Source of the DNA: a virus
Lineage: Duplodnaviria > Heunggongvirae > Uroviricota > Caudoviricetes
Direction: 5' to 3' (one strand)
Virus record (IMG/VR): IMGVR_UViG_2534681737_000003
Length of the DNA: 12,399 nucleotides
Shown: positions 1 to 12,399 of the stretch, one piece after another
How the letters are laid out: the number at the start of each line of letters is the position of its first letter
Numbering within the stretch: the first letter of the stretch is position 1
Notes under the pieces: model-generated
Seen by the model: only the letters and a program-made list of their open reading frames with translations
Databases searched by the model: none
What the model was told of the DNA's origin: nothing
Position numbers and translations under genes: made by a program

Positions 1-456
1 CTGTGCGTGGTCATCATTGCCCTGCTGGTGGCCTGTGGTGCGCTTAGTCTGGGGCTGAATCATTACCGTGATAACGCCATAACCTACAAAGAGCAGCGCG
101 ATAAAAAAGTCAGTGAGCTGGAGCAGGCAAATGCAACCATTACTGATATGCAGCAGCGCCAGCGTGATGTTGCTGCACTTGATGCCAGATACTCGAGGGA
201 ATTAGCCGATGCGAGAGCTGAAAATGAAACTCTTCGCGCTGACGTTGCCGCTGGTCGTAAGCGCCTGCGGATCAACGCCACCTGTCCAGGCTCCGTGCGT
301 GAAGCCCCCACCACCTCCGGCGTGGATAATGCAACCGGCCCCCAACTGGCAGACACCGTTACACGGGATTATTTCACCCTCAGAGAGCGGCTGATGACGA
401 TGCACAAGCAACTGGAAGGGGCACAGGACTATATCCGCACTCAGTGCCTGAAATAA
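1..456 (+). CDS. Rz: Spanin inner-membrane subunit (i-spanin) Rz, 5'-truncated by the window edge
   Basis: Track ORF 7..456; the frame is open from base 1. Translation ([12 protein letters not shown]...DVAAGRKRL...[19 protein letters not shown]) is collinear with lambda Rz as I recall it. N-terminal hydrophobic stretch consistent with the signal-anchor TM. The first few codons lie upstream of the window. Confidence 0.9.
209..394 (+). CDS. Rz1: Spanin outer-membrane lipoprotein subunit (o-spanin) Rz1, embedded in the +1 frame of Rz
   Basis: Track ORF 209..394 lies wholly inside Rz in another frame. It has a lipobox (LVVSAC) followed by a proline-rich segment ([14 protein letters not shown]) that matches lambda Rz1 closely. 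Start could be ATG 209 or ATG 224; 209 aligns better with the lambda N-terminus. Confidence 0.85.
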
Positions 457-806
457 GTTTTGTTGATGCGCCGTATCGTCGCTGTATTCCCTCATTAACA
501 GAGACCGCAGCCCGACAGGGAGACTCCTCTGCGCGAGTGTGCGGGGATAATCAAAAACGATACACACCGGGGTTTACCGCGTTAACGGAGCGCGGCGTTG
601 TCCCCTCATAGTCGCCTGTCCGGTGCGATGGTGGAAGAAGCCGGATGTTTATCACTATTAATTGATGACACAGAAATGGATTCATTGAATTTCAGCACGT
701 TTTTGTATTCGTGTTATTGAACATCTGTTTATTTTACTTTTAACATATTGATAATAAAAAGAGCTGTAAATCTTTAGATGAGTCGATTTTGTCCGGGGAA
801 GTTCAA

Positions 807-947
807 ATGGATTTTATGCTGACGGTTTCTGGTGTGGTTATCCTGTCCATTGCTTATACTGCAGATAAATATGGCTGCCATTTGTTATCACGTATTGGCG
901 CTTATTGTTCGTTGATGCTGATTTTCTCGTCGCTTTTTTTTGAGTAA
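807..947 (+). CDS. Hypothetical 46-aa hydrophobic peptide (possible small membrane protein; speculative)
   Basis: Hand-translated ATG 807 to TAA 945-947: MDFMLTVSGVVILSIAYTADKYGCHLLSRIGAYCSLMLIFSSLFFE. GGGGAAG 6 nt upstream could act as a weak SD. Sits in the AT-rich spacer. Below the track length cutoff; no homology recognised. Confidence 0.15.
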   Translation: MDFMLTVSGVVILSIAYTADKYGCHLLSRIGAYCSLMLIFSSLFFE

Positions 948-1079
948 GTTATATTAATTATAACAAATAATTTTCTGTGTTATTTTTTCAGGCTATCCCG
1001 TCAGAGGGGAAGCCTGTACTGCCGGGGAGCGAATGGAAAACTGATGTGTCCGGTAACTGCGTGTTCTGTGAACACCATG

Positions 1080-1265
1080 TTACTTAATTATGTAATTCAT
1101 ACCCGAACTCTCTGTTGACAGCCTTCTTCTGCAGGCTTCAATAACCCACGCTGAAAAGTTTCCTGAACCTTTCAGATCAAGAGCGATGTTAATTTGTTCA
1201 ATCATCTGGTTTGGAAATCGGATGTTGCGGGTTGTTGTTCTGCGGGTTCTGTTCTTTGATGACAT
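1080..1265 (-). CDS. Small putative ribbon-helix-helix DNA-binding protein, possibly YlcI/YnfO-like (DUF3950)
   Basis: Track ORF 61 aa (MSSKNRTRRTTTRNIRFPNQMIEQINIALDLKGSGNFSAWVIEACRRRL...). Basic N-terminus, then a short strand-like segment and two helix-like segments, as in RHH repressors. GGGGAAA SD-like motif about 5 nt upstream of the ATG on the minus strand. Position next to cos/Nu1 resembles where ylcI/ynfO-type genes sit in E. coli lambdoid prophages (from memory, unverified). Confidence 0.45.
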   Translation of the reverse strand: MSSKNRTRRTTTRNIRFPNQMIEQINIALDLKGSGNFSAWVIEACRRRLSTESSGMNYIIK

Positions 1266-1326
1266 AATGTTTCCCCATATTCAGTGTTGCTGATTTGTAT
1301 TATCTGAAGTTGCTTTTACGTTAATT

Positions 1327-1360
1327 TGACGCAGATCAATTAATACGATACCTGCGTCAT
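1327..1360. promoter_or_regulatory. Paired inverted repeats (candidate operator) upstream of the minus-strand small RHH-like gene
   Basis: TGACGCAG at 1327-1334 has its exact reverse complement CTGCGTCA at 1352-1359, and ATCAATTA is paired with TAATTGAT. Located 60-95 bp upstream of the 1265 start of the minus-strand ORF. Function inferred only. Confidence 0.25.
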
Positions 1361-1471
1361 AATTGATTATTTCTCGTGGTTTGATGGCGTACACACATGT
1401 TGTGATAAACCTTATATAGATGATAATTATTATCATTTCGTGGGTCCTTTCCGGCGATCCGACCGGTTACG

Positions 1472-1483
1472 GGGCGGCGACCT
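1472..1483 (+). other. cosN: cosN 12-nt cohesive-end sequence (terminase nicking site)
   Basis: Exact GGGCGGCGACCT, the lambda 5' single-stranded cohesive end, in the canonical context ...GGTTACG|GGGCGGCGACCT|CGCG. Confidence 0.85.
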
Positions 1484-1520
1484 CGCGGGTTTTCGCTATT
1501 TATGAAAATTTTCCGGGATC

Positions 1521-1619
1521 CATGTCCGGTTTCTCTTCAAGTTAACTATATGAAAAATATAAAAACAGGTCTTCTGTGAACCGGACATGAACAAAAAACA
1601 GACATGTAAACCGGACATG
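1521..1619. repeat. Three copies of AACCGGACATG (one inverted, two direct) in the cosB position: candidate small-terminase R-site binding elements
   Basis: CATGTCCGGTT at 1521-1531 (inverted), AACCGGACATG at 1579-1589 and 1609-1619 (direct, 30 bp apart), with an A-rich tract (1551-1566) between the first and second. Arrangement parallels lambda cosB (R3, IHF site, R2, R1); binding is inferred. Confidence 0.55.
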
Positions 1620-1666
1620 ACCGGTTTTGTTGTGATTGTGAGGTGAGAGTTTTTGCGAGGTGAGGA

Positions 1667-2176
1667 GTGGCTACGCAGACTGAAGTTGCCAGGCATTTGA
1701 GTCTGACCGATCGCCAGCTTCGCAGATTGCAGAAATTACCGGGTGCCCCGGTCTCGAATAAGCGAGGGCAACTGGATCTGGATGCCTGGCGCGATTTTTA
1801 CATATCGTATCTGAGAAGAAGTAAAAACGATGTGCCTGATGGCGATAGCGAAGAAGACTATGAAGAGAAATTGCTTATTGCCAGATGGGAACTGACAGCA
1901 GAACAGGCTGTTACACAGCAGTTAAAAAATGAGGTGTCAAAAGGAAAACTGATTGACACCGGGTTCTGTATTTTTGCCCTCAGTAAGCTGGCAATGGCGT
2001 TATCCAGTACGCTTGATTCCATCCCTTTATCCATGCAGCGACAGTTTCCTGATTTAACACCGCGCCATCTTGACCATCTGAAAACCCTTATTGCTAAGGG
2101 GGCAAATCAGTGTGCGCGGGCAGGGGATAAATTACCGGATTTACTTGATGAATATATCAGAGCAACAACTGAATAA
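1667..2176 (+). CDS. Nu1: Terminase small subunit (Nu1 homolog)
   Basis: Track ORF 169 aa with GTG start at 1667 (in-frame TGA at 1661-1663 prevents extension); GAGG SD-like motif upstream. C-terminal two thirds are collinear with lambda gpNu1 (e.g. FCIFALSKLA...IPLSMQRQFPDL..RHLDHLK); the N-terminus has an HTH-like segment. Confidence 0.9.
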   Translation: MATQTEVARHLSLTDRQLRRLQKLPGAPVSNKRGQLDLDAWRDFYISYLRRSKNDVPDGDSEEDYEEKLLIARWELTAEQAVTQQLKNEVSKGKLIDTGFCIFALSKLAMALSSTLDSIPLSMQRQFPDLTPRHLDHLKTLIAKGANQCARAGDKLPDLLDEYIRATTE

Positions 2177-4076
2177 TATGATGAGCGCTGTCACAACTGC
2201 ATTACAGCCCCTGATAAGGGCATTGCCGGTGACGCCAGTTGAATGGGCTGATCAAAATTATTATCTGCCTAAAGAATCTTCATATGGTGAGGGCGAATGG
2301 AAAACGCTGCCATTCCAGATCGCCATCATGAACAGCATGGGGAATGATCAGATCCGCACTGTTAATCTGATTAAATCTGCCCGTGTTGGCTATACAAAGA
2401 TGTTGCTGGGGGTGGTCGGGTATTTTATTGAGCATAAATCCCGAAACAGTCTGCTTTTTCAGCCCACGGATTCTGCCGCTGAAGATTTTATGAAGTCTCA
2501 CGTGGAGGCGACGATTCGGAACGTGCCATGCCTGAAAGACCTTTCCCCATGGCTGGGTCGTAAACATCGTGACAATACTCTCACGCTGAAACGCTTTTCA
2601 TCGGGCGTCGGTTTCTGGTGCCTGGGCGGCGCTGCCGCCAAAAACTACCGTGAAAAATCCGTGGACGTGGTCTGTTATGACGAGCTTTCCTCGTTCGAAC
2701 CGGATGTTGAAAAAGAGGGTTCGCCAACCCTGCTGGGGGATAAACGTATTGAGGGCTCTGTATGGCCAAAATCCATTCGCGGCTCGACGCCTAAAATCAA
2801 AGGCTCCTGCCAGATCGAAAAAGCCGCTAACGAGTCGGCACACTTCATGCGTTTTTATGTGCCCTGTCCGCACTGTGGGGAGGAGCAGTATCTGAAATTT
2901 GGCGATGATGCCTCGCCTTTCGGTCTTAAGTGGGAGAAGAATAAGCCAGAAAGTGTTTTCTACCTTTGTGAGCATCATGGCTGTGTGATCCATCAGTCTG
3001 AGCTTGACCAGAGTAACGGGCGGTGGATCTGTGAAAACACGGGCATGTGGACCCGTGACGGCCTGATGTTTTTCAGCGCCCGGGGTGATGAAATTCCGCC
3101 GCCGCGCTCCATCACTTTCCATATCTGGACGGCGTACAGTCCGTTCACCACCTGGGTACAGATTGTCTATGACTGGCTGGATGCACTGAAAGATCCCAAC
3201 GGCCTGAAAACCTTTGTGAACACCACGCTGGGCGAGACCTGGGAAGAGGCTGTGGGCGAAAAACTCGATCACCAGGTGCTGATGGATAAGGTTGTGCGTT
3301 ACACGGCGGCGGTGCCTGCCCGGGTGGTTTATCTGACGGCGGGCATTGACTCGCAGCGAAACCGTTTTGAGATGTATGTCTGGGGATGGGCTCCGGGAGA
3401 GGAAGCCTTTCTGGTGGATAAAATCATCATTATGGGGCGTCCTGATGAGGAAGAGACGCTGTTACGTGTGGATGCGGCGATCAACAAAAAATACCGCCAT
3501 GCGGATGGCACCGAAATGACTATTTCCCGTGTCTGCTGGGACACCGGGGGGATCGATGGTGAAATTGTTTATCAGAGATCAAAAAAACACGGTGTTTTCC
3601 GGGTGCTGCCGGTAAAAGGCGCATCTGTCTATGGCAAGCCGGTGATCACCATGCCAAAAACCCGCAATCAGCGGGGCGTGTATCTGTGTGAAGTGGGAAC
3701 GGACACCGCAAAAGAAATTCTCTATGCCCGTATGAAAGCCGATCCCTCGCCTGCGGATGAAGCCACGTCGTATGCCATCCGTTTTCCTGATGATCCGGAG
3801 ATTTTTTCGCAGACAGAGGCGCAGCAACTGGTCGCGGAAGAGCTTGTGGAGAAGTGGGAAAAAGGAAAGATGCGTCTGCTGTGGGATAACAAAAAGCGGC
3901 GTAACGAAGCGCTGGACTGCCTGGTGTATGCCTACGCGGCATTACGTGTGTCCGTGCAACGCTGGCAGCTTGATCTGGCTGTACTGGCAAAATCCCGGGA
4001 AGAAGAGACGACCCGGCCAACCCTTAAAGAACTGGCAGCGAAGCTGTCCGGAGGAGTGAATGGTTACAGTCGCTGA
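2148..4076 (+). CDS. A: Terminase large subunit (gpA homolog; ATPase/endonuclease)
   Basis: Track ORF 2091..4076; preferred start is ATG 2148 (MNISEQQLNNMM...), matching the lambda gpA N-terminus MNIS.. and giving 642 aa versus 641 in lambda. Extensive collinear identity (VEWAD.NYYLPKES, GGAAAKNYREKSVDV, PCPHCGEEQYLKFGD, TFVNTTLGETWE). Overlaps the Nu1 3' end by 29 nt, as in lambda. Confidence 0.95.
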   Translation: MNISEQQLNNMMSAVTTALQPLIRALPVTPVEWADQNYYLPKESSYGEGEWKTLPFQIAIMNSMGNDQIRTVNLIKSARVGYTKMLLGVVGYFIEHKSRNSLLFQPTDSAAEDFMKSHVEATIRNVPCLKDLSPWLGRKHRDNTLTLKRFSSGVGFWCLGGAAAKNYREKSVDVVCYDELSSFEPDVEKEGSPTLLGDKRIEGSVWPKSIRGSTPKIKGSCQIEKAANESAHFMRFYVPCPHCGEEQYLKFGDDASPFGLKWEKNKPESVFYLCEHHGCVIHQSELDQSNGRWICENTGMWTRDGLMFFSARGDEIPPPRSITFHIWTAYSPFTTWVQIVYDWLDALKDPNGLKTFVNTTLGETWEEAVGEKLDHQVLMDKVVRYTAAVPARVVYLTAGIDSQRNRFEMYVWGWAPGEEAFLVDKIIIMGRPDEEETLLRVDAAINKKYRHADGTEMTISRVCWDTGGIDGEIVYQRSKKHGVFRVLPVKGASVYGKPVITMPKTRNQRGVYLCEVGTDTAKEILYARMKADPSPADEATSYAIRFPDDPEIFSQTEAQQLVAEELVEKWEKGKMRLLWDNKKRRNEALDCLVYAYAALRVSVQRWQLDLAVLAKSREEETTRPTLKELAAKLSGGVNGYSR

Positions 4077-4266
4077 ACTGCAGGCGCTGCGTCAGGCGCG
4101 CCTTGATTTATTAACCGGTAAACGGGTGGTGTCTGTCCAGAAAGATGGTCGCAGAATTGAATATACGGCGGCTTCTCTGGATGAGCTTAACCGGGCGATC
4201 AATGATGCGGAGTCGGTACTGGGGACAACCCGGTGTCGCCGTCGTCCGCTGGGAGTGAGATTATGA
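4060..4266 (+). CDS. W: Head-tail joining / head completion protein gpW homolog
   Basis: 68-aa ORF; MVTVAELQALRQARLDLLTGKRVVSVQKDGRRIEY resembles lambda gpW (68 aa). GGAGGAG SD at 4051-4057. Overlaps the end of A and the start of B. Confidence 0.9.
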   Translation: MVTVAELQALRQARLDLLTGKRVVSVQKDGRRIEYTAASLDELNRAINDAESVLGTTRCRRRPLGVRL

Positions 4267-5855
4267 AACGAACGCCTGTCCTGATTGATGTGAACGGCGT
4301 TCCGCTTCGTGAGAGTCTCAGCTACAACGGGGGCGGTGCAGGATTTGGCGGGCAAATGGCTGAGTGGTTGCCACCGGCGCAGAGTGCCGATGCGGCCCTG
4401 CTGCCCGCGTTGCGTCTGGGGAATGCCCGGGCAGATGATCTGGTGCGCAATAACGGAATAGCGGCTAATGCGGTGGCTCTGCATAAGGATCACATTGTCG
4501 GGCATATGTTTCTGATCAGCTACCGTCCGAACTGGCGCTGGCTGGGGATGCGGGAGACCGCAGCAAAAAGCTTTGTCGATGAGGTGGAGGCGGCCTGGTC
4601 GGAATACGCCGAAGGGATGTCTGGCGAGATCGACGTGGAAGGAAAACGCACGTTCACGGAATTTATCCGTGAAGGTGTGGGCGTTCATGCGTTTAACGGC
4701 GAAATCTTTGTGCAGCCGGTCTGGGATACGGAAACCACGCAGTTATTCCGTACGCGTTTTAAAGCCGTGAGTCCGAAACGGGTGGACACGCCTGGACACG
4801 GTATGGGGAACCGTTTTCTGCGGGCCGGTGTGGAGGTCGATCGATATGGCCGTGCCGTCGCGTACCATATCTGTGAGGATGATTTTCCGTTCTCTGGTAG
4901 TGGACGATGGGAACGGATCCCGCGTGAACTTCCCACCGGGCGTCCGGCCATGCTGCATATTTTCGAGCCGGTGGAGGACGGGCAGACCCGTGGGGCTAAT
5001 CAGTTTTACAGCGTCATGGAACGGCTGAAGATGCTCGATTCCCTGCAGGCAACACAGCTTCAGTCGGCCATAGTGAAGGCGATGTATGCAGCGACGATTG
5101 AAAGTGAACTTGATACCGAAAAGGCCTTTGAATATATCGCCGGCGCGCCACAGGAGCAGAAGGATAATCCGCTTATTAATATTCTGGAGAAGTTTTCCAG
5201 CTGGTATGACACGAATAACGTGACACTGGGCGGTGTCAAAATTCCGCACCTTTTCCCTGGTGATGATCTGAAACTACAGACTGCGCAGGATTCAGACAAT
5301 GGATTTTCTGCGCTTGAACAGGCGCTGCTGCGGTATATCGCCGCCGGTCTTGGCGTTTCCTACGAACAGTTGTCCCGTGATTACTCGAAGGTCAGTTACT
5401 CAAGTGCCCGCGCCTCCGCCAATGAGTCGTGGCGCTATTTTATGGGGCGGCGAAAATTTATTGCGGCCCGGCTGGCCACGCAGATGTTTTCCTGCTGGCT
5501 GGAAGAGGCACTTCTTCGGGGGATTATTCGTCCGCCACGGGCACGTTTTGATTTTTATCAGGCGCGATCAGCCTGGTCACGGGCAGAGTGGATTGGTGCC
5601 GGAAGAATGGCCATTGACGGGCTCAAGGAAGTCCAGGAATCAGTGATGCGCATTGAGGCCGGACTGAGCACGTATGAGAAAGAGCTGGCGCTGATGGGCG
5701 AGGATTATCAGGACATTTTCCGCCAGCAGGTCAGGGAATCTGCTGAGCGGCAAAAAGCCGGACTCTCACGTCCGGTGTGGATAGCGCGGGCGTATCAGCA
5801 GCAGATAGCGGAGAGTCGCAGGCCGGAAGAGGAGACAACACCCCGTGAGACGTAA
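4263..5855 (+). CDS. B: Portal protein (gpB homolog)
   Basis: Track ORF 4233..5855; preferred start ATG 4263 (MKRTPVLI..) forms an ATGA overlap with the W stop. 530 aa versus 533 in lambda. Strongly collinear with lambda gpB (NARADDLVRNNG, FEPVEDGQTRGAN.FYSVME, LQSAIVKAMYAATIESELDT, LLRYIAAGLGVSYEQLSR, GRMAIDGLKEVQE). Confidence 0.95.
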   Translation: MKRTPVLIDVNGVPLRESLSYNGGGAGFGGQMAEWLPPAQSADAALLPALRLGNARADDLVRNNGIAANAVALHKDHIVGHMFLISYRPNWRWLGMRETAAKSFVDEVEAAWSEYAEGMSGEIDVEGKRTFTEFIREGVGVHAFNGEIFVQPVWDTETTQLFRTRFKAVSPKRVDTPGHGMGNRFLRAGVEVDRYGRAVAYHICEDDFPFSGSGRWERIPRELPTGRPAMLHIFEPVEDGQTRGANQFYSVMERLKMLDSLQATQLQSAIVKAMYAATIESELDTEKAFEYIAGAPQEQKDNPLINILEKFSSWYDTNNVTLGGVKIPHLFPGDDLKLQTAQDSDNGFSALEQALLRYIAAGLGVSYEQLSRDYSKVSYSSARASANESWRYFMGRRKFIAARLATQMFSCWLEEALLRGIIRPPRARFDFYQARSAWSRAEWIGAGRMAIDGLKEVQESVMRIEAGLSTYEKELALMGEDYQDIFRQQVRESAERQKAGLSRPVWIARAYQQQIAESRRPEEETTPRET

Positions 5856-7350
5856 TCTTTCACACATTATTGCCGCAGCATTCAATGAACCGCTGCTTCT
5901 GGAGCCCGCCTATGCGCGGGTTTTCTTTTGCGCGCTCGGGCGCGAGATGGGGGCAGCAAGTCTTTCGGTACCACAGCAGCAGGTACAGCTTGATGCTCCC
6001 GGAATGCTGGCTGAAACGGACGAGTACATGGCCGGAGGTAAACGACCGGCCCGTGTTTACCGGGTGGTGAACGGTATTGCTGTACTGCCGGTGACCGGCA
6101 CGCTGGTGCACCGGCTGGGGGGTATGCGGCCATTTTCCGGAATGACAGGCTATGACGGCATTGTCGCCTGTCTTCAGCAGGCAATGGCGGATAGCCAGGT
6201 GCGGGGCGTACTGCTGGACATTGACAGTCCGGGCGGGCAGGCCGCCGGCGCGTTTGACTGCGCTGACATGATTTACCGCCTCCGTCAGCAGAAGCCGGTC
6301 TGGGCACTGTGCAATGACACGGCCTGTTCTGCAGCCATGCTGCTGGCGTCGGCCTGCTCCCGACGGCTGGTTACCCAGACATCCCGTATCGGCTCCATTG
6401 GCGTGATGATGAGCCATGTCAGCTATGCCGGTCATCTGGCGCAGGCCGGTGTGGATATCACGCTGATTTACTCAGGGGCGCACAAGGTGGATGGCAATCA
6501 GTTTGAAGCCTTACCGGCAGAGGTTCGCCAGGACATGCAGCAGCGCATTGATGCGGCGCGCCGGATGTTTGCCGAAAAAGTGGCCATGTTTACCGGTCTG
6601 TCTGTTGATGCCGTCACGGGAACAGAGGCCGCCGTTTTTGAAGGTCAGTCCGGCATTGATGCCGGGCTGGCGGATGAATTAGTCAATGCGTCGGATGCCA
6701 TCAGTGTGATGGCCACGGCGCTGAACAGTAATGTCAGAGGAGGCACTATGCCGCAATTAACTGCAACGGAAGCCGCCGCGCAGGAGAACCAGCGAGTGAT
6801 GGGGATCCTGACATGCCAGGAAGCGAAAGGACGTGAACAGCTTGCCACGATGCTGGCAGGACAACAGGGCATGAGCGTTGAACAGGCCCGGGCGATTCTG
6901 GCCGCGGCGGCACCGCAGCAGCCGGTGGCATCCACGCAGAGTGAAGCCGATCGCATTATGGCGTGTGAAGAAGCGAACGGTCGTGAACAACTGGCGGCAA
7001 CGCTGGCGGCGATGCCGGAGATGACGGTGGAAAAAGCCCGCCCGATCCTGGCTGCTTCACCGCAGGCGGATGCCGGACCCTCACTCCGTGATCAGATCAT
7101 GGCACTGGATGAGGCAAAAGGGGCTGAGGCGCAGGCTGAACAGCTGGCTGCCTGCCCGGGAATGACTGTGGAGAGCGCCCGGGCTGTGCTGGCTGTGGGA
7201 TCAGGTAAGGCAGAACCGGTCTCTGCATCCACAACCGCCCTGTTTGAACGCATCATGGCGAACCATTCACCGGCAGCGGTACAGGGTGGCGTGCCACAGA
7301 CGTCAGCAGACGGTGATGCGGACGTGAAAATGCTCATGGCTATGCCATGA
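5845..7350 (+). CDS. C: Prohead protease / scaffold protein gpC homolog (S49/ClpP-like serine peptidase, N-terminal part) with repeat-rich C-terminal scaffold region
   Basis: Track ORF 501 aa, GTG start with GAGGAG SD about 10 nt upstream; overlaps the B stop. N-terminus AAFNEPLLLEPAYARVFF and the peptidase core (IDSPGG..AGAFDCADMI, PVWAL.ND.A.SAA.LLASA.SRRLVTQT.R.GSIGVMM) are collinear with lambda gpC. About 60 aa longer than lambda C (439 aa). Confidence 0.9.
   Translation: MRRNLSHIIAAAFNEPLLLEPAYARVFFCALGREMGAASLSVPQQQVQLDAPGMLAETDEYMAGGKRPARVYRVVNGIAVLPVTGTLVHRLGGMRPFSGMTGYDGIVACLQQAMADSQVRGVLLDIDSPGGQAAGAFDCADMIYRLRQQKPVWALCNDTACSAAMLLASACSRRLVTQTSRIGSIGVMMSHVSYAGHLAQAGVDITLIYSGAHKVDGNQFEALPAEVRQDMQQRIDAARRMFAEKVAMFTGLSVDAVTGTEAAVFEGQSGIDAGLADELVNASDAISVMATALNSNVRGGTMPQLTATEAAAQENQRVMGILTCQEAKGREQLATMLAGQQGMSVEQARAILAAAAPQQPVASTQSEADRIMACEEANGREQLAATLAAMPEMTVEKARPILAASPQADAGPSLRDQIMALDEAKGAEAQAEQLAACPGMTVESARAVLAVGSGKAEPVSASTTALFERIMANHSPAAVQGGVPQTSADGDADVKMLMAMP
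6748..7350 (+). CDS. Nu3: Candidate Nu3-type scaffolding protein from an in-frame internal start within C
   Basis: Strong internal RBS AGGAGG (6737-6742) 5 nt before in-frame ATG 6748 (MPQLTATEAAAQ...); shares the C stop at 7350. In lambda, Nu3 is likewise nested in-frame in the 3' part of C. The exact start is inferred. Confidence 0.5.
   Translation: MPQLTATEAAAQENQRVMGILTCQEAKGREQLATMLAGQQGMSVEQARAILAAAAPQQPVASTQSEADRIMACEEANGREQLAATLAAMPEMTVEKARPILAASPQADAGPSLRDQIMALDEAKGAEAQAEQLAACPGMTVESARAVLAVGSGKAEPVSASTTALFERIMANHSPAAVQGGVPQTSADGDADVKMLMAMP
6793..7290 (+). repeat. Three (plus a partial fourth) diverged tandem repeats of about 47-53 codons within the C/Nu3 scaffold region
   Basis: Protein-level repeats starting at nt 6793, 6952 and 7093: RVMGILTCQEAKGREQLATMLAGQQGMSVEQARAILAAAAPQ / RIMACEEANGREQLAATLAAMPEMTVEKARPILAASPQ / QIMALDEAKGAEAQAEQLAACPGMTVESARAVLAVGSG, then a partial ERIMANHSPAAVQ near 7246. 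The DNA copies are diverged, so not a recent duplication. Confidence 0.7.
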
Positions 7351-7386
7351 AGTCAGTGCTGACCATCAACAGGAGGTTTTTACAAT

Positions 7387-7734
7387 ATGGTAACGAAAAC
7401 CATCACTGAACAGCGTGCGGAAGTACGTATTTTTGCCGGTAATGATCCGGCTCATACCGCCACAGGCAGCAGCGGGATTTCCTCGGCAACACCGGCACTG
7501 ACGCCCCTGATGCTGGATGAAGCTACCGGGAAACTGGTGGTCTGGGACGGACAGAAAGCCGGTAGTGCGGTTGGCATACTGGTACTGCCGCTTGAAGGCA
7601 CAGAGACGGTACTGACGTATTACAAGTCGGGGACCTTTGCGACGGAGGCAATCCGCTGGCCTGACAGTGTGGATGAACACAAAAAGGCAAATGCCTTTGC
7701 CGGCAGTGCCCTGAGTCACGCGGCGCTGCCGTAA
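7387..7734 (+). CDS. D: Head decoration protein gpD homolog
   Basis: 115-aa track ORF; NDPAHTATG....A.TPLMLD....KLV.WDG...G.AVGIL and YKSGTF.....WP......KK.AFAG.A.S match lambda gpD (110 aa). GGAGG SD upstream. Confidence 0.9.
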   Translation: MVTKTITEQRAEVRIFAGNDPAHTATGSSGISSATPALTPLMLDEATGKLVVWDGQKAGSAVGILVLPLEGTETVLTYYKSGTFATEAIRWPDSVDEHKKANAFAGSALSHAALP

Positions 7735-7791
7735 CACGTTATCAGGCCACCGCGGTGGCCTGACTGATTTCTGAATGAAAGGAACTGATTT

Positions 7792-8820
7792 ATGGGATTG
7801 TTTACGACCCGCCAGTTACTCGGTTATACCGAACAAAAAGTGAAATTTCGTGCGCTGTTTCTGGAGCTGTTTTTCCGCCGTACGGTGAATTTCCATACCG
7901 AAGAGGTGATGCTGGACAAAATTACCGGAAAAACGCCGGTGGCGGCCTATGTTTCCCCGGTTGTTGAAGGAAAAGTGCTGCGTCATCGTGGTGGTGAAAC
8001 CCGCGTGTTACGTCCGGGCTACGTCAAGCCGAAACACGAATTTAATTACCAGCAGGCGGTTGAGCGTCTTCCCGGTGAAGATCCGGCTCAGCTGAACGAC
8101 CCGGCCTACCGTCGTCTGCGTATCATCACTGATAACCTCAAACAGGAAGAGCACGCCATTGTCCAGGTGGAAGAAATGCAGGCGGTGAATGCCGTGCTGT
8201 ATGGCAAATACACGATGGAAGGAGACCAGTTCGAGAAAATTGAGGTCGATTTTGGCAGGTCGACGAAGAATAACATCACTCAGGGTAGTGGTAAGGAGTG
8301 GTCAAAACAGGATCGTGACACGTTCGATCCTACACATGATCTTGACCTCTACTGCGACCAGGCCAGCGGTCTTGTGAATATTGCCATTATGGACGGTACC
8401 GTCTGGCGTCTGCTGAATGGCTTTAAATTGTTCCGCGAAAAACTGGATACCCGTCGCGGCTCTAATTCGCAACTCGAAACAGCGGTGAAAGACCTGGGCG
8501 CGGTGGTGTCCTTCAAAGGGTATTACGGCGATCTGGCCATTGTGGTGGCAAAAACGTCTTATGTGGCAGAGGACGGTACCGAAAAACGTTATCTGCCTGA
8601 GGGCTCGCTGGTCCTGGGGAATACGGCAGCAGAGGGCATTCGTTGCTATGGTGCCATTCAGGATGCGCAGGCGTTGTCCGAAGGTGTGGTGGCCTCTTCC
8701 CGTTATCCGAAACACTGGCTGACGGTAGGGGATCCCGCCCGTGAATTTACCATGACGCAGTCCGCGCCGCTGATGGTGTTGCCGGACCCGGATGAGTTTG
8801 TGGTGGTACAGGTGAAATAA
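7792..8820 (+). CDS. E: Major capsid protein gpE homolog
   Basis: 342-aa track ORF versus 341 in lambda; collinear identity throughout (PGYVKPKHE, DPAYRRLRII, AIVQVEEMQAVNAVLYGKYTM, KLDTRRGSNS.LETAVKDLG, AIVVAK, GDPAREFTMTQSAPLMVLPDPDEFV). Confidence 0.95.
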   Translation: MGLFTTRQLLGYTEQKVKFRALFLELFFRRTVNFHTEEVMLDKITGKTPVAAYVSPVVEGKVLRHRGGETRVLRPGYVKPKHEFNYQQAVERLPGEDPAQLNDPAYRRLRIITDNLKQEEHAIVQVEEMQAVNAVLYGKYTMEGDQFEKIEVDFGRSTKNNITQGSGKEWSKQDRDTFDPTHDLDLYCDQASGLVNIAIMDGTVWRLLNGFKLFREKLDTRRGSNSQLETAVKDLGAVVSFKGYYGDLAIVVAKTSYVAEDGTEKRYLPEGSLVLGNTAAEGIRCYGAIQDAQALSEGVVASSRYPKHWLTVGDPAREFTMTQSAPLMVLPDPDEFVVVQVK

Positions 8821-8828
8821 TCCGTGAG

Positions 8829-8858
8829 CGGGGGCGAAATGCCCCCGTGTCTTTTTTC
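8829..8858 (+). terminator. GC-rich stem-loop plus T-run immediately after the major capsid gene (candidate partial terminator or mRNA-stabilising hairpin)
   Basis: CGGGGGC (8829-8835), loop GAAAT, GCCCCCG (8841-8847), then TGTCTTTTTTCAC with a T6 run at 8852-8857. Lies between the E stop (8820) and the FI start (8872). Function inferred; any termination is probably partial since downstream tail genes sit in the same operon. Confidence 0.4.
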
Positions 8859-8871
8859 ACAGGGGGATGAT

Positions 8872-9246
8872 ATGGCAACGAAAGAGCAAAATCTGAAACG
8901 GCTTGATGAACTGGCCCTGATTCTGGGGCGTGAGCCGGATATATCCGGGAGTGCCGCAGAGATAGCGCAGCGGGTGGCAGAATGGGAAGAGGAAATGCAG
9001 TCATCCGGCGATGATGTACAGGTTATGAATATGGATATCCGGGAGAGGGAAAACGCGGCTCATGATGTTCGTGAGGAAACATCCGGCGCGTTAACGCGCA
9101 TCAGAGTTCTGACCTGCCTCCATCTCTGTGGCGTTGATGGTGAAACGGGGGAATCCGTTGAGCTTGCGGATGTTGGTCGGGTGATTCTGATTATGTCCTC
9201 AGATGCAAAAACACACGTTGATGGTGGAATGGCTGTTTATGCGTGA
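8872..9246 (+). CDS. FI: DNA packaging / head-tail assembly protein gpFI homolog
   Basis: Track ORF 8824..9246; preferred start ATG 8872 (MATKEQNLKRL...) follows SD AGGGGGA, which avoids overlapping the hairpin. 124 aa, acidic, in the lambda FI position. Sequence similarity to lambda FI is weaker than for neighbours; assignment mainly by synteny and size. Confidence 0.75.
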   Translation: MATKEQNLKRLDELALILGREPDISGSAAEIAQRVAEWEEEMQSSGDDVQVMNMDIRERENAAHDVREETSGALTRIRVLTCLHLCGVDGETGESVELADVGRVILIMSSDAKTHVDGGMAVYA

Positions 9247-9592
9247 TTTTCAGAATGCCTTTGATGCCGCCCTTGCCGGGGTGGACAGTACGATTGTTGA
9301 AGTGATGGGCATCAGTGCGCAGTTCACCTCCGGTGCACAGCGTGGCGGCGAAGTTCAGGGGGTTTTTGACGATCCGGAGTCGCTGGGTTTTGCCAGTAGT
9401 GGGATCCGTATTGAAGGAAGCAGCCCGTCATTATTTGTGCGGACGGATACGGTTCGTGCCGTGCGGCGTGGTGACACGTTGACCATTAATGGTGAGACGT
9501 TCTGGGTGGATCGTGTTTCTCCGGATGACGGGGGCAGTTGTTATCTCTGGCTGAACCGTGGGCAACCACCCGCAGTTAACCGGCGACGATAA
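9239..9592 (+). CDS. FII: Head completion protein gpFII homolog
   Basis: Track ORF 9203..9592; preferred start ATG 9239 (MRDFQNAFDAALAG...) gives 117 aa as in lambda. Near-identical C-terminus to lambda FII (IRIEGSSPSLFVRTD.VR..RRGDTLTI....FWVDRVSPDDGGSC.LWL.RG.PPAVNRRR). Overlaps the FI stop. Confidence 0.9.
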   Translation: MRDFQNAFDAALAGVDSTIVEVMGISAQFTSGAQRGGEVQGVFDDPESLGFASSGIRIEGSSPSLFVRTDTVRAVRRGDTLTINGETFWVDRVSPDDGGSCYLWLNRGQPPAVNRRR

Positions 9593-9606
9593 ACGCAGGG
9601 TGAATT

Positions 9607-10182
9607 ATGGCGATAAAAGGGCTTGATCAGGCGATTGAAAATCTGAGCCGGGTTCGTAAAAACGCCATTCCGTCGGCTTCAGCAATGGCTATTAACCGCG
9701 TGGCTACAACGGCGATTAATCAGTCTTCATCACAGGTTGCCCGGGAGACCAGGGTGAGCCGGAAACTGGTAAAGGAACGGTCCAGACTGAAACGGGCCAC
9801 GGTCAGAAATCCGAATGCCAGAATTATCGTTAACCGCGGTGATCTCCCTGCTATTAAGCTGGGGATCAGGATGCTTGGTCATCGTCCGAACAGCATACTT
9901 AAAGCCGGTCAGCATCGTTATCAGCGGGCATTCATCCAGCGATTAAATAATGGGCGCTGGCATGTTATGCAACGTTTGCCAGAAGCCCGGTATGCGAAGG
10001 GCAATGACGATAAAGGAAGGAAAAAGCGTAATCGTCTTCCCATTCAGGTGGTTAAAATTCCGATGGCGGCCCCACTGAAGCAGGCTTTTGATGAGAACGT
10101 TAACCGTATCCGGCGAGAACGTCTGCCAAAAGAACTGGGCTATGCGTTGAAACAACAACTAAGGATTGTGATAAAGCGATGA
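9607..10182 (+). CDS. Z: Tail completion protein gpZ homolog
   Basis: 191 aa versus 192 in lambda; MAIKGL.QA.ENLSR....A.P.A.AMAINRVA..AI.QS.SQVARET.V.RKLVKER.RLKRATV.NP.ARI.VNRGDLP.IKLG and C-terminus IERIRRERLPKELGYAL..QLR.VIKR match lambda gpZ. Confidence 0.9.
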   Translation: MAIKGLDQAIENLSRVRKNAIPSASAMAINRVATTAINQSSSQVARETRVSRKLVKERSRLKRATVRNPNARIIVNRGDLPAIKLGIRMLGHRPNSILKAGQHRYQRAFIQRLNNGRWHVMQRLPEARYAKGNDDKGRKKRNRLPIQVVKIPMAAPLKQAFDENVNRIRRERLPKELGYALKQQLRIVIKR

Positions 10183-10574
10183 AACATACTGATATCCGTG
10201 CTGCAGTGCTGGATGCACTCGAGCAGCATGAACACGGGGCGACGCTGTTTGACGGTCGCCCCGCTGTTTTTGATGAGGCGGATTTTCCGGCAATTGCTGT
10301 TTATCTCACCGGCGCTGAATACACGGGCGAAGCGCTGGACAGCGATACCTGGCAGGCGGAGCTGCATATTGAAGTTTTCCTGCCTGCTCAGGTGCCGGAT
10401 TCAGAGCTGGATTCGTGGATGGAAAGCCGGATTTATCCGGCGATGAGTGCGATCCCGGCACTGTCAGGCCTGATTACCACGATGGTTACGCAGGGCTATG
10501 AGTATCGTCGTGATGACGATATGGCGTTATGGAGTTCTGCTGATTTGACTTATTCCATTACATACGAGATGTGA
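10179..10574 (+). CDS. U: Tail terminator protein gpU homolog
   Basis: 131 aa; near-identical to lambda gpU over most of its length ([79 protein letters not shown]). ATGA overlap with the Z stop. Confidence 0.92.
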
Positions 10575-10581
10575 GGACGAT

Positions 10582-11334
10582 ATGCCAACACCAAATCCTC
10601 TGGCACCGGTAAAAGGTGCCGGTACCACCCTGTGGGTTTATAACGGTCAGGGTGATGCCTATGCAAACCCGTTGTCAGACGATAACTGGCAGCGACTGGC
10701 ACAGGTAAAGGATCTGACGCCGGGCGAGATGACGGCAGAACCCTACGATGATAACTACCTGGATGATGAAGACGCGGACTGGACTGCGACCGGGCAGGGG
10801 CAGAAGTCTGCAGGAGATACCAGTTTTACGCTGGCCTGGAAACCGGGAGAAGAAGGTCAGAAAGGGCTTATAGGCTGGTTTGAAAGCGGGGATGTGCGGG
10901 CCTATAAAATCCGTTTCCCGAACGGCACGGTGGATGTGTTCCGTGGCTGGGTCAGCAGTATCGGTAAGGCCGTAACGGCGAAGGAAGTGATCACCCGTAC
11001 GGTGAAAGTGACCAACGTGGGTAAACCTTCTGTGGCGGAAGAACGCAGCGAAATTACGCCGGTCACTGCGATTAAGGTGACGCCGACATCTGGTACGGTG
11101 GCAAAAGGGAAAACAACAACCCTGACGGTTTCTTTTGAGCCGGAAAGTGCAACCGACAAAACGTTCAGAGCGGTTTCCGCCGATCCGTCAACGGGAACCA
11201 TTGCTGTGAAAGATATGGCGATCACTGTGACGGGGGTTAAGGCTGGAAAAGTGAGTATCCCCGTGATTTCCGGTAATGGTCAGTTTGCCACGGTAGCTGA
11301 AGTCACCGTTACTGAAGCGGGCGCTGCAGGGTAA
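10582..11334 (+). CDS. V: Major tail tube protein gpV homolog with C-terminal Ig-like (Big_2-type) domain
   Basis: 250 aa versus 246 in lambda; N-terminal 150 aa near-identical to lambda gpV ([114 protein letters not shown]). More variable C-terminal Ig-like domain. Confidence 0.95.
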
Positions 11335-11347
11335 ACGGAGGTAATAC

Positions 11348-11779
11348 ATGTTTCTGAAAACCGAACAATTTGAATATAACGGTGTGTCCGTCACGCTTTC
11401 CGAGCTGTCTGCGCTGCAGCGTATCGAGCATCTTGCCCTGCTGAAACGACGGGCAGAACAGGCTGAAGCCAGCGGTAACCTGCAGGTGAGCGTGGAAGAC
11501 CTTGTCAGAACCGGCGCGTTTCTGGTGGCGATGTCCCTGTGGCATAACCATCCACAGAAAACGGAGTCACCATCAATGAATGAGGCTGTGATGCAGATCG
11601 AACAGGAGGTGCTCACCACCTGGCCTGCTGATGCCATTGCCCGGGCGGAAGACGTGGTGTTGCGTCTGTCCGGGATGAGCGGGGCTGTTCATGTGGATAC
11701 GGATATCACCGAAGTGGCGAAAAATAACGCGCTTACTGATGATGATTTTTCTGCGGGAAAGTCTTCGACGGCGAGCTGA
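11348..11779 (+). CDS. G: Tail assembly chaperone gpG homolog (zero-frame product of the G/GT frameshift pair)
   Basis: 143 aa; [35 protein letters not shown].......[52 protein letters not shown] near-identical to lambda gpG. Ends ...SAGKSSTAS like lambda (..SAGKCSTVS). Confidence 0.92.
11755..11761 (+). other. Programmed -1 ribosomal frameshift slippery heptamer G GGA AAG (G to G-T)
   Basis: GGGAAAG at 11755-11761 in the zero frame of G (codons GGA 11756-11758, AAG 11759-11761), the same heptamer and position (about 6 codons before the G stop) as in lambda. The -1 frame downstream is open and lambda-T-like. Confidence 0.8.
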
Positions 11780-12399
11780 ATTTTGCCCTCAGACTGGCGC
11801 GAGAGATGGGGAGGCCTGACTGGCGCGCCATGCTTGCCGGGATGACATCCACCGAATATGCCGACTGGCGACATTTTTACCGCACGCATTATTTTCAGGA
11901 TACCCAACTGGATATGCATTTTTCCGGGCTGATGTACGCTGTACTCAGCCTGTTTTTTTGCGATCCGGATATCGGGGCAACCGGTGAACGGGGACCGAGA
12001 GGAGATACAGGTCCGGCAGGTCCGCAGGGGCCGAAAGGCGACAGGGGAGAGCGGGGAGATACCGGTCTGACGGGAAGCGCAGGTCCACAGGGTCCAAAGG
12101 GAGATACCGGTGCGGCAGGCCCGGCAGGCCCACAGGGACCGAAAGGAGAAACAGGTGCGGCTGGCCCGGTGGGGGCAACCGGACCTCAGGGACCGAAGGG
12201 CGACCCGGGGGAGACACAAATCCGTTTTCGTCTGGGGCCGGGAAACATTATTGAGACAAACAGCCATGGCTGGTTCCCGGATACAGATGGCGCACTCATC
12301 ACCGGACTGACCTTTCTTGACCCCAAAGATGCCACACGGGTTCAGGGTTTTTTTCAGCATTTGCAGGTCAGGTTTGGTGACGGGCCGTGGCAGGATGTC
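11761..12399 (+). CDS. -1 frame continuation of G: lambda gpT-like N-terminal segment (about 70 aa) fused in-frame to a collagen-like Gly-X-Y repeat and a further domain; 3'-truncated by the window edge
   Basis: Hand-translated from 11761: [70 protein letters not shown] is collinear with the lambda gpT region just after the frameshift, then diverges into the Gly-X-Y triplets and [63 protein letters not shown]. No stop to 12399. Absent from the track, most likely because it has no in-window stop. Confidence 0.65.
11974..12216 (+). repeat. Collagen-like triple-helix repeat, 27 uninterrupted Gly-X-Y triplets (coding-level repeat)
   Basis: Frame 1: [81 protein letters not shown]. The GPQGPKG(D/E) unit recurs four times with synonymous codon differences. 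Confidence 0.85.

Follow-up and report, generated by a model that had tools for sequence, protein, structure and literature searches.

The closest described relatives of the locus presented here are the C/Nu3 genes of bacteriophage lambda and genes 5 and 6 of phage 21. Interactions of the lambda Nu3 protein with itself, with C and with E have been reported (PMC3224144), and gpC is known here as the protease from the title of a cited reference (ref. 95 in PMC10695390). In phage 21, gene 5 encodes the head-tail preconnector gp5 and gene 6 encodes the scaffold gp6. The GenBank record M81255 annotates gene 6 as nested in gene 5, together with its ribosome binding site (RBS) and three repeats named Tri1 box, Tri box, and Tri3 box, all at positions corresponding to the features described below. 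A further phage 21 record, OL657228, names the two products "capsid protease/scaffolding protein" and "scaffolding protein." The nested in-frame arrangement is also annotated in phages N15 and Sano. Since the annotation of phage 21 dates from 1993, neither the triplication nor the nested gene is new; the triplication is real but already known. The original description of the phage 21 head genes is that of Smith and Feiss (1993, Gene 126:1-7). Nothing about the Tri boxes came up in full-text literature searches, and the judgement that the triplication is already known is based on the GenBank annotation.

The stretch of DNA analyzed here, hereafter called the window, has a length of 12,399 nucleotides (IMG/VR record IMGVR_UViG_2534681737_000003; all features below are on the + strand). 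Positions 5845-7350 very probably represent the gene 5/gene 6 pair, analogous to lambda C/Nu3, of a phage-21-type head module carried by an E. coli prophage and encoding a three-module scaffold. Gene 5, the lambda C homologue (5845-7350), is an open reading frame for a 501-aa protein made up of an S49 prohead protease and a scaffold region. It starts with a GTG inside the 3' end of the portal gene and is preceded by a putative RBS, GAGGAG (5830-5835), which corresponds to the gene 5 RBS of M81255 (positions 1486-1491 of that locus). Over all of its 1506 nt, it shares 98.6% identity with gene 5 of phage 21, and the products differ by 10 substitutions in 501 residues. This product also matches the head maturation protease family PHROG 53 (E = 1e-227) and lambda C (E = 5e-143), the 54% aa identity with the latter extending over the protease and unit 1 of the repeat. 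The peptidase S49 (SppA-like) domain (aa 146-293; 6280-6723) is found above the Pfam cut-off (PF01343, E = 7e-35) and matches SppA structures of the PDB (3rst/4kwb, E ~5e-16). Putative catalytic residues are Ser162 (6328-6330) and Lys214 (6484-6486), aligned to lambda Ser166 and Lys218, and the protease is presumably active.

The head operon, as assigned with PHROGs, has the order small and large terminase, W, portal, gene 5, decoration, major capsid, FI, and FII, and is collinear with the annotations of PhiR12, phage 21, and lambda. The portal gene spans 4233-5855 and the major capsid gene 7792-8820. Gene 5 thus lies between the portal gene on one side and the decoration and major capsid genes on the other, as in lambda-type head operons. 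The match with phage 21 is absent upstream of position 2230 (small terminase and N-terminus of the large terminase). At the other end, the distal tail genes are apparently lost, with a deletion at about 11972, and the prophage looks defective. Its gene 5 copy may therefore have escaped selection.

The C-terminal 200 residues of the gene 5 product contain three diverged modules of about 40 aa. Self-comparison of the protein (ungapped BLOSUM62, 25-aa windows) showed off-diagonals at +50, +47, and +97 aa with scores of 73, 64, and 62, compared with maxima averaging 29-31 (sd 4, largest 47) in 300 shuffles. With a hidden Markov model (HMM) of the unit, three domains are recognized in the protein, at E values of 1e-22 to 1e-24. 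Unit 1 (aa 317-355; 6793-6909; E = 4e-22) overlaps the Tri1 box of M81255 (window 6815-6918), unit 2 (aa 369-405; 6949-7059; E = 6e-24) the Tri box (window 6955-7065), and unit 3 (aa 416-452; 7090-7200; E = 3e-22) the Tri3 box (window 7096-7209). The consensus of the module is ..I..EAKGRE.LA..LA..PGMTVE.AK..LAAAP, and its three copies are 50-58% identical pairwise at the amino acid level and 56-65% at the nucleotide level (codon-aligned). They are separated by linkers of 10-14 aa rich in Pro, Gln, Ala, and Ser, and the last one is followed by a short tail. An earlier note on this DNA had counted three full repeats and a partial fourth. The three full units are those seen by the HMM; the putative fourth, a short helix LFERIMANHS resembling a unit start (7240-7269; 15-nt matches D6 and D8), is not detected by the unit HMM over its 8-10 residues, and is plausible as a partial repeat but not significant by itself. 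This region belongs to a helix (residues 160-173) in a single-sequence model of the Nu3-like protein, the motif is present in only nine of 55 distant full-length relatives, and a counterpart, ALDRLMQG, follows the single unit of lambda.

Indeed, lambda C contains one unit only (aa 360-398, by HMM) where the window has three. All three align to it, with scores of 86, 72, and 70 for units 1-3, unit 1 being the closest copy (62% identity). The earlier note's reading of a repeat triplicated with respect to lambda is thus borne out by the two comparisons it had proposed, of the C protein with itself and with lambda C, and an equal number of units in lambda C, which would have placed the length difference elsewhere, was not found. 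The protein is 501 aa long vs. 439 aa for lambda C, that is +62, in agreement with the excess of about 60 aa noticed earlier. It is longer because of the two extra units, partly offset by the longer linker of lambda between the internal methionine and the first unit; the balance with respect to lambda C is -7 aa in the protease, -36 in this linker, +97 in the units with their linkers, and +8 in the tail.

A panel of homologues was surveyed by running the HMM on the phage loci, tblastn with one unit being unsuited to counting, as the low-complexity filter shortens the query and one place per record is reported. Three units are found in phage 21, in the window, and in Gifsy-1, and one in lambda, N15 (gp5/gp6), phi80, and Xylella phage Sano. 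In the last three phages, the S49 protease and its single C-terminal module make up proteins of 447-449 aa. The Gifsy-1 protein STM2605 (lambda gpC homologue, 498 aa) has its three units in the same order as in the window. The first two Gifsy-1 units are positional orthologues of those of the window, with 74 and 81% identity as compared with 43-59% for other pairings, and the top Gifsy-1 match of the window's unit 3 is also unit 3 (59%). The two loci share only about 71% nucleotide identity, unit 3 and the tail being more diverged. Since Gifsy-1 has the triplication with the unit order unchanged, the triplication must be old.

Within gene 5, a Shine-Dalgarno (SD) sequence, GAGGAGG (6737-6743), lies 4 nt before an in-frame ATG at 6748. 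The strong internal RBS and start pointed out in the earlier note are therefore present in the DNA, and the predicted product of this nested gene 6 (6748-7350), a Nu3 homologue identical to the 200 C-terminal residues of gp5, holds all the units. It would begin at Met302 of gp5, which is followed by Pro-Gln-Leu-Thr-Ala-Thr. Gene 6 is an annotated coding sequence in the phage 21 records M81255 and OL657228; both also carry the RBS, and the start corresponding to 6748 is a putative or predicted feature there. The gene 6 product matches PHROG 8399 (head scaffolding protein) in three stretches, and is 100% identical in about 40 IMG/VR contigs. Of 80 related IMG/VR loci, 78 have the internal-start sequence GAGGAGGnnnnATGCC. 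In lambda, the aligned position is occupied by AGGAGGgcgaATG, that is AGGAGG-ATG, kept in place within a linker that is otherwise poorly conserved between the two phages. From these signals, the start at 6748 is probably used for translation. The conserved SD and ATG also support a start of lambda Nu3 at the corresponding site instead of the upstream ATG chosen in RefSeq.

The repeated unit is confidently predicted to be a discrete module of three helices. An AlphaFold2 (AF2) model of unit 1 has a pLDDT of 92.6 and a pTM of 0.75. Its matches in BFVD (TM scores of 0.85-0.90, probability of 1.00) are to other S49 prohead proteases of phages, in their C-terminal part. The single-sequence AF2 model of the whole Nu3-like protein is poor (pLDDT 64.8, pTM 0.30); too poor for conclusions on tertiary structure, it was left out of the fold search. 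The module occurs near the C-terminus of 340 representative proteins (E <= 1e-3), almost always singly, and its taxonomic breadth is given by this search together with the tblastn against phages. Among 55 full-length representatives at 50% identity, 53 have a single unit. Three-unit forms recur in the diverged representatives P0121, P0123, and P0125. Pfam, NCBIfam, and PDB sequence searches gave no match for the scaffold part; with no Pfam or NCBIfam family and no solved structure, this half of the protein goes unnamed in automatic annotation.

Unit number varies among close homologues from E. coli, which have 2, about 2.5, 3, or 4 units. Length variants of 451/452, 472, 482, and 551 aa show either hybrid junctions between units (R1/R2 or R3/R2) or deletions within a unit, and the hybrid junctions suggest unequal recombination between units. 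In the allele seen most often (P0038, 482 aa, at least 1000 contigs), half of unit 2 is deleted. The suggestion of the earlier note that repeat number could alter procapsid assembly or scaffold release is speculative; the existence of alleles with 2-4 units points to variation being tolerated, not to one strictly required number. These alleles are mostly prophage copies, of uncertain viability. As for isolated phages covering gene 5, 19 out of 19 have it at full length, within 6 nt. This copy-number polymorphism, unlike the triplication, may be previously undescribed.

Other readings of the repeat and of the nested gene have to be weighed against these data. Because the Nu3-like part contains 22% Ala, with Gln and Glu also abundant, and part of the unit is masked by BLAST as low in complexity, the repeat might be taken for a compositional artefact of an Ala-rich region. 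This is already refuted and has practically no probability left: shuffles preserving the composition of the Nu3 region score at most 44 as compared with the observed 62-73, the three units have 15 invariant columns in common, each unit matches the HMM with an E value of about 1e-22, and the module is found singly in hundreds of diverse proteins. It is hardly more credible that the Tri boxes are elements acting at the DNA or RNA level, for instance as binding sites for proteins or as RNA structures, instead of protein modules, even if M81255 describes them as repeat_region features of "function unknown" and OL657228 places two CII-pattern sites inside gene 6. The low nucleotide identity between units does not fit such elements, and synonymous positions are not conserved, only 7-9 of the 18-21 identical residues between units being encoded by identical codons. 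TRF found no repeat in the DNA, and the DNA repeat search gave only matches of 12-25 nt at 72-87%, of the kind expected by chance. The CII pattern itself is present three times in the window, when 2.4 occurrences are expected by chance, and Rfam has no match in the window. The repeat is visible at the protein level and not at the DNA level, and this strong protein signal, together with the confident fold prediction, argues for protein modules.

Production of the scaffold fragment by proteolysis of gp5 only, with the internal SD and ATG idle in translation, would be in line with the presence of a protease domain that is presumably active, and with PGAP annotating a single coding sequence. We consider it quite improbable in view of the conservation of the internal start signal, both in the related loci and in lambda, and of the nested starts annotated in phage 21, N15, and Sano. 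Besides, Shaw and Murialdo reportedly identified lambda Nu3 as a separately initiated product in 1980. More weight, although the idea is still rather doubtful, is given to the two extra units being neutral passengers, one module sufficing and copy number having no effect on assembly, on the number of scaffold copies, or on scaffold release. A single unit does suffice in most relatives, and alleles with 2, about 2.5, 3, and 4 units coexist in E. coli, the one seen most often having lost half of unit 2. However, the three units have stayed intact, in order, and conserved as protein since before the split between phage 21 and Gifsy-1, the isolated phages all keep a full-length gene 5, and three-unit forms are also present among diverged representatives.

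The two-product arrangement with a modular scaffold, which we favor, would work as follows. One reading frame would give two products, the 501-aa S49 protease-scaffold and, from the internal SD and ATG at 6748, a 200-aa scaffold. Their common C-terminal region would consist of three successive modules of three helices, each folding on its own. Most relatives have a single module, which would have been triplicated long ago in the phage 21/Gifsy-1 lineage. The module may retain both scaffold and protease inside the assembling procapsid, through contacts with the major capsid protein, with other copies of itself, or both; the protease would co-assemble because it carries the modules of the scaffold, which it would then degrade. 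Three modules would render every chain multivalent, and copy number would later have shifted within the range of 2 to 4 among E. coli prophages through unequal recombination. The data themselves cover homology, the architecture of the repeat, conservation of the internal start signal, the predicted fold, and the distribution of copy number; use of the internal start, the binding partner of the module, and any effect of its copy number are deduced. One may go further and regard module number as an evolvable parameter, changed by unequal recombination and by independent duplications elsewhere, that tunes scaffold valency and, through it, either the stoichiometry of scaffold to capsid or how robustly procapsids nucleate; this extension is speculative and, in our opinion, unlikely.

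As a discovery, the present locus is minor, the triplication being public and the gene common in E. coli prophages. What is added here is a confident model of the three-helix module, its occurrence in many S49 prohead protease/scaffold proteins, usually in a single copy, the triplication in Gifsy-1, and the E. coli alleles with 2-4 units. The natural alleles with one, two, three, and four modules constitute a ready series for studying the effects of scaffold valency on lambda-type procapsid assembly.

Other systems can be set beside this one. The Pfam helix-hairpin-helix (HHH) motif reached 13-15 bits for a gathering cut-off of 24 and was rejected. The P22 gp8-type scaffold, with its C-terminal helix-turn-helix coat-binding domain, showed insufficient similarity in fold or sequence. 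Tandem three-helix bundles of the staphylococcal protein A type have 9-18% identity and scores as for any small helical bundle; the resemblance is one of fold only, and a common origin or function has no support. In the herpesvirus HSV-1, nested in-frame initiation at UL26/UL26.5 produces a protease and an abundant scaffold with a common C-terminal region, hence their co-assembly; the herpesvirus protease has the assemblin fold, unrelated to S49, and no sequence kinship is expected. Lambda C/Nu3 shares with the window the position in the operon, the Ser/Lys pair, and the internal SD and ATG. Finally, phage 21 genes 5 and 6 are alike in the 501-aa length of gp5, the internal RBS and ATG, and the three Tri boxes.

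The gene in question (5845-7350, +) encodes a 501-aa protein that is assigned over its whole length to the head maturation proteases in PHROGs (phrog_53, E=1e-227). It carries a Peptidase_S49 domain (aa 146-293; PF01343, E=7e-35) related to solved SppA structures, in which Ser162 and Lys214 are aligned with Ser166 and Lys218 of lambda C. The C-terminal part is matched in three separate stretches by the head-scaffolding family phrog_8399. For the corresponding gene in the NZ_CP051001.1 locus (locus positions 8840-10345), RefSeq PGAP gives only the name "S49 family peptidase", with no CDS for the nested scaffold.

The triplicated repeat described in the earlier note is real and far above chance. 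When the protein is compared with itself (BLOSUM62, ungapped, 25-residue window), the off-diagonals at +50, +47 and +97 residues score 73, 64 and 62; in 300 shuffles, either of the whole protein or of the alanine-rich C-terminal 200 aa alone, the best off-diagonal averages 29-31 (sd 4) and never exceeds 47. Searched with an HMM of the unit, the protein yields exactly three domains (E between 4e-22 and 6e-24), all encoded on the plus strand: unit 1 at aa 317-355 (6793-6909), unit 2 at aa 369-405 (6949-7059) and unit 3 at aa 416-452 (7090-7200). Once aligned, the three units have 15 invariant columns and the consensus D.IMAC.EAKGREQLA..LAA.PGMTVE.ARAILAA. TRF detects no tandem repeat at the DNA level, and the repetition is visible in the protein only. 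Nucleotide identity between units is 56-65% (codon-aligned), and identical codons are used at fewer than half of the residues that are identical between units. Because the units are alike in protein and diverged in DNA, the duplication is old and conservation operates at the protein level. The partial fourth repeat that had also been claimed, LFERIMANH (~7240-7269), is plausible but not demonstrable from the sequence: lambda has an equivalent, ALDRLMQG, after its single unit, but the motif spans only 8-10 residues, is missed by the unit HMM and is present in 9 of 55 distant relatives, i.e., is not conserved there.

The internal ribosome-binding site and start codon are as first described, with GAGGAGG at 6737-6743, a 4-nt spacer and ATG at 6748. 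The nested Nu3-like product stands as a prediction: it would be of 200 aa and carry all three units. Met302 lies opposite lambda Met309 in the BLASTP alignment, where the lambda DNA is AGGAGGgcgaATG, and the motif GAGGAGGnnnnATGCC occurs in 78 of 80 related IMG/VR loci. Phage 21, N15 and Xylella phage Sano all have an annotated scaffold gene nested in frame. About 40 viral contigs of IMG/VR encode a product identical to the 200-aa one, and relatives are encoded by 403 stretches in that database. As to lambda itself, the RefSeq nu3 start (5132) is an ATG without Shine-Dalgarno sequence, while a perfect AGGAGG followed by ATG is located 210 nt 3' of it (~5331-5344; 2832-2845 vs. 2633 in our lambda locus), at the site homologous to where gene 6 starts in phage 21. 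The nu3 start may be misplaced in RefSeq.

For unit 1 with its flanks (a 56-aa segment), AlphaFold2, run on an alignment of 89 unit sequences taken from diverse relatives, gives a confident model (mean pLDDT 92.6, pTM 0.75) with three helices, which span segment residues 2-16, 24-31 and 38-47. The matches of this model in BFVD lie in the C-terminal portion of S49 prohead proteases of other phages (TM 0.85-0.90, probability 1.00), from Salmonella phage 37, Synechococcus virus S-ESS1 and an uncultured siphovirus. The PDB contains no sequence relative of the unit, and no family in Pfam or NCBIfam covers the unit or the scaffold module. When the whole 200-aa product is modelled from its sequence alone, the result is poor (pLDDT 64.8), with helical units and low-confidence linkers between them, consistent with beads on a string.

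A search of 1.84 billion representative proteins with the three-unit profile gave 340 at E<=1e-3. Among the best 150 of these, 132 have one unit, 13 two and five three; 55 of the 150 are full length (at least 380 aa), and 53 of the 55 have one unit, always near the C-terminus. Within a panel of named phages, three units are found in phage 21, the window and Salmonella Gifsy-1, and one in lambda, N15, phi80 and Xylella phage Sano. Unit number tracks length class in the 120 closest homologues from the databases, with two units at 451/452 aa, two units and half of unit 2 at 472 and 482 aa, three at 501 aa and four at 551 aa; one 657-aa protein with a larger internal duplication may be an assembly artefact. 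One homologue (P0085) has a hybrid of units 1 and 2, another (P0095) cleanly lacks unit 2, a third (P0002) gains a unit through a hybrid junction of units 3 and 2, and the most widely seen allele (P0038, 482 aa, at least 1000 contigs) is devoid of 19 aa of unit 2. Such junctions are what unequal or illegitimate recombination between the diverged units is expected to leave. The three-unit length (+/- 6 nt) is found in all 19 isolated phages covering the gene.

One frame holds an S49 protease and three conserved modules, predicted to be three-helix, with a conserved internal translation signal just 5' of them. In lambda, Nu3 is the scaffold, and Nu3-Nu3, Nu3-C and Nu3-E interactions have been reported (PMC3224144); gpC is presented as a protease in the title of Medina et al., 2010 (as listed in PMC10695390, ref. 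95). We propose that the shared module would bring the scaffold and the protease alike into the shell as it assembles, acting by capsid-protein binding and/or self-association, that the protease would then remove the scaffold, and that three modules would provide multivalency. The main rival, that the extra modules are tolerated passengers without effect, appears rather unlikely to us. A compositional artefact as the source of the repeat is excluded by the shuffles, the unit HMM and the occurrence of the module in diverse proteins. It is also unlikely that the "Tri boxes", repeat_region features of the phage 21 record M81255, function at the DNA level, since nucleotide and synonymous conservation between units is poor and CII patterns are at chance level. 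OL657228 does annotate CII-binding-site patterns (TTGYN6TTGY) in gene 6, at window 6753-6766 and 6987-7000 (-); with three in the window vs. 2.4 expected, these are most likely chance matches.

The window belongs to a lambdoid prophage and spans its late region, from lysis to tail genes. The plus strand encodes an Rz-like spanin (7-456), the small terminase (1667-2176), the large terminase, a W-like adaptor (4060-4266), the portal (4233-5855), the protease/scaffold gene, the decoration protein (7387-7734) and the major capsid protein (7792-8820), followed by FI, FII, Z, U, V and G. At 1.2 kb, the Rz-small terminase spacer (456-1667) exceeds that of the PhiR12 phages, which are otherwise collinear, by about 650 bp; the cos site expected within it was not located. 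It holds a 61-aa minus-strand ORF (1080-1265) with the length and relative position of the YlcI/YnfO-family gene annotated in the prophage of E. coli O157:H16 str. 98-3133. Only from 2230 onwards does the window match phage 21 and its nearest relatives; upstream (1-2230), it is the PhiR12 group that matches the small terminase and the N-terminal portion of the large one. This mosaic joint inside the large terminase gene (~2230) is at the boundary expected for a packaging-specificity swap.

At the other end, all phage matches to the G/T tail-assembly region stop at 11972, and 11972-12399 is a 97-99% match to a tail-fibre gene that the Stx phages ArgO145 and BP-4795 carry at about 44 kb. The junction looks like a deletion fusing gene T to the tail-fibre gene with removal of H, M, L, K, I and J, so that the prophage is probably defective. 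Among 5426 complete E. coli genomes, the exact junction is found only in 98-3133, where both flanking genes are partial pseudogenes according to PGAP. The 98-3133 prophage (NZ_CP051001.1 locus, locus positions 10342-10918 vs. window 7350-9600) no longer has the genes for the decoration protein, the major capsid protein, FI and Z, and is missing part of FII. Since the window retains them all, it is a less decayed relative from another genome. A 223-aa ORF (11689-12360, -) matches PHROG 18077 (unknown function, E=5e-83); because it is antisense to G/T and tail-fibre coding sequence, this PHROG may be built from spurious antisense ORFs.

Compared with lambda C, the protein is longer by 62 aa (501 vs. 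439), in line with the difference of about 60 aa noted earlier, and repeat numbers are unequal: the unit HMM finds a single unit in lambda C (aa 360-398) and three here. Identity between the two proteins is 54% over an alignment that starts at the N-terminus and extends through the first unit. Each of the three window units can be aligned to the single lambda unit (scores 86, 72 and 70), unit 1 being the closest (62%). The length balance comprises -7 aa in the protease part, -36 aa in the linker from the internal Met to the first unit (longer in lambda), +97 aa for the two extra units with their linkers and +8 aa in the tail. In Gifsy-1, units 1 and 2 are closest to window units 1 and 2 (74% and 81%, vs. 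43-59% for other pairings); given this pairing by position, the triplication predates the split between the head modules of phage 21 and Gifsy-1. The Gifsy-1 record cites Swiss-Prot 'Head-tail preconnector protein GP5 [Contains: Scaffold protein GP6...'.

The closest known system is phage 21 (M81255.1, OL657228.1), 98.6% identical over all 1506 nt of the gene, as are several isolated phage-21-like coliphages over the full gene; its gp5 differs at 10 of 501 residues. The source paper of its head-gene record is reportedly Smith and Feiss 1993, Gene 126:1-7. This record ('Bacteriophage 21 head gene operon') annotates gene 5 and a nested gene 6 with a putative RBS, the gene 6 start corresponding to window 6748, as well as 'Tri1 box' (6815-6918), 'Tri box' (6955-7065) and 'Tri3 box' (7096-7209), described as 'function unknown; putative'. 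In OL657228, the products are named 'capsid protease/scaffolding protein' and 'scaffolding protein'. The triplication and the nested gene are therefore already known, a verdict resting on the GenBank record. The observation is confirmed and its interpretation supported, but it is a rediscovery of an annotated phage 21 feature; the only elements that may be new are the confident predicted fold of the unit, its standing as a module without a name that S49 prohead proteases have in common, and the natural series of one to four copies.
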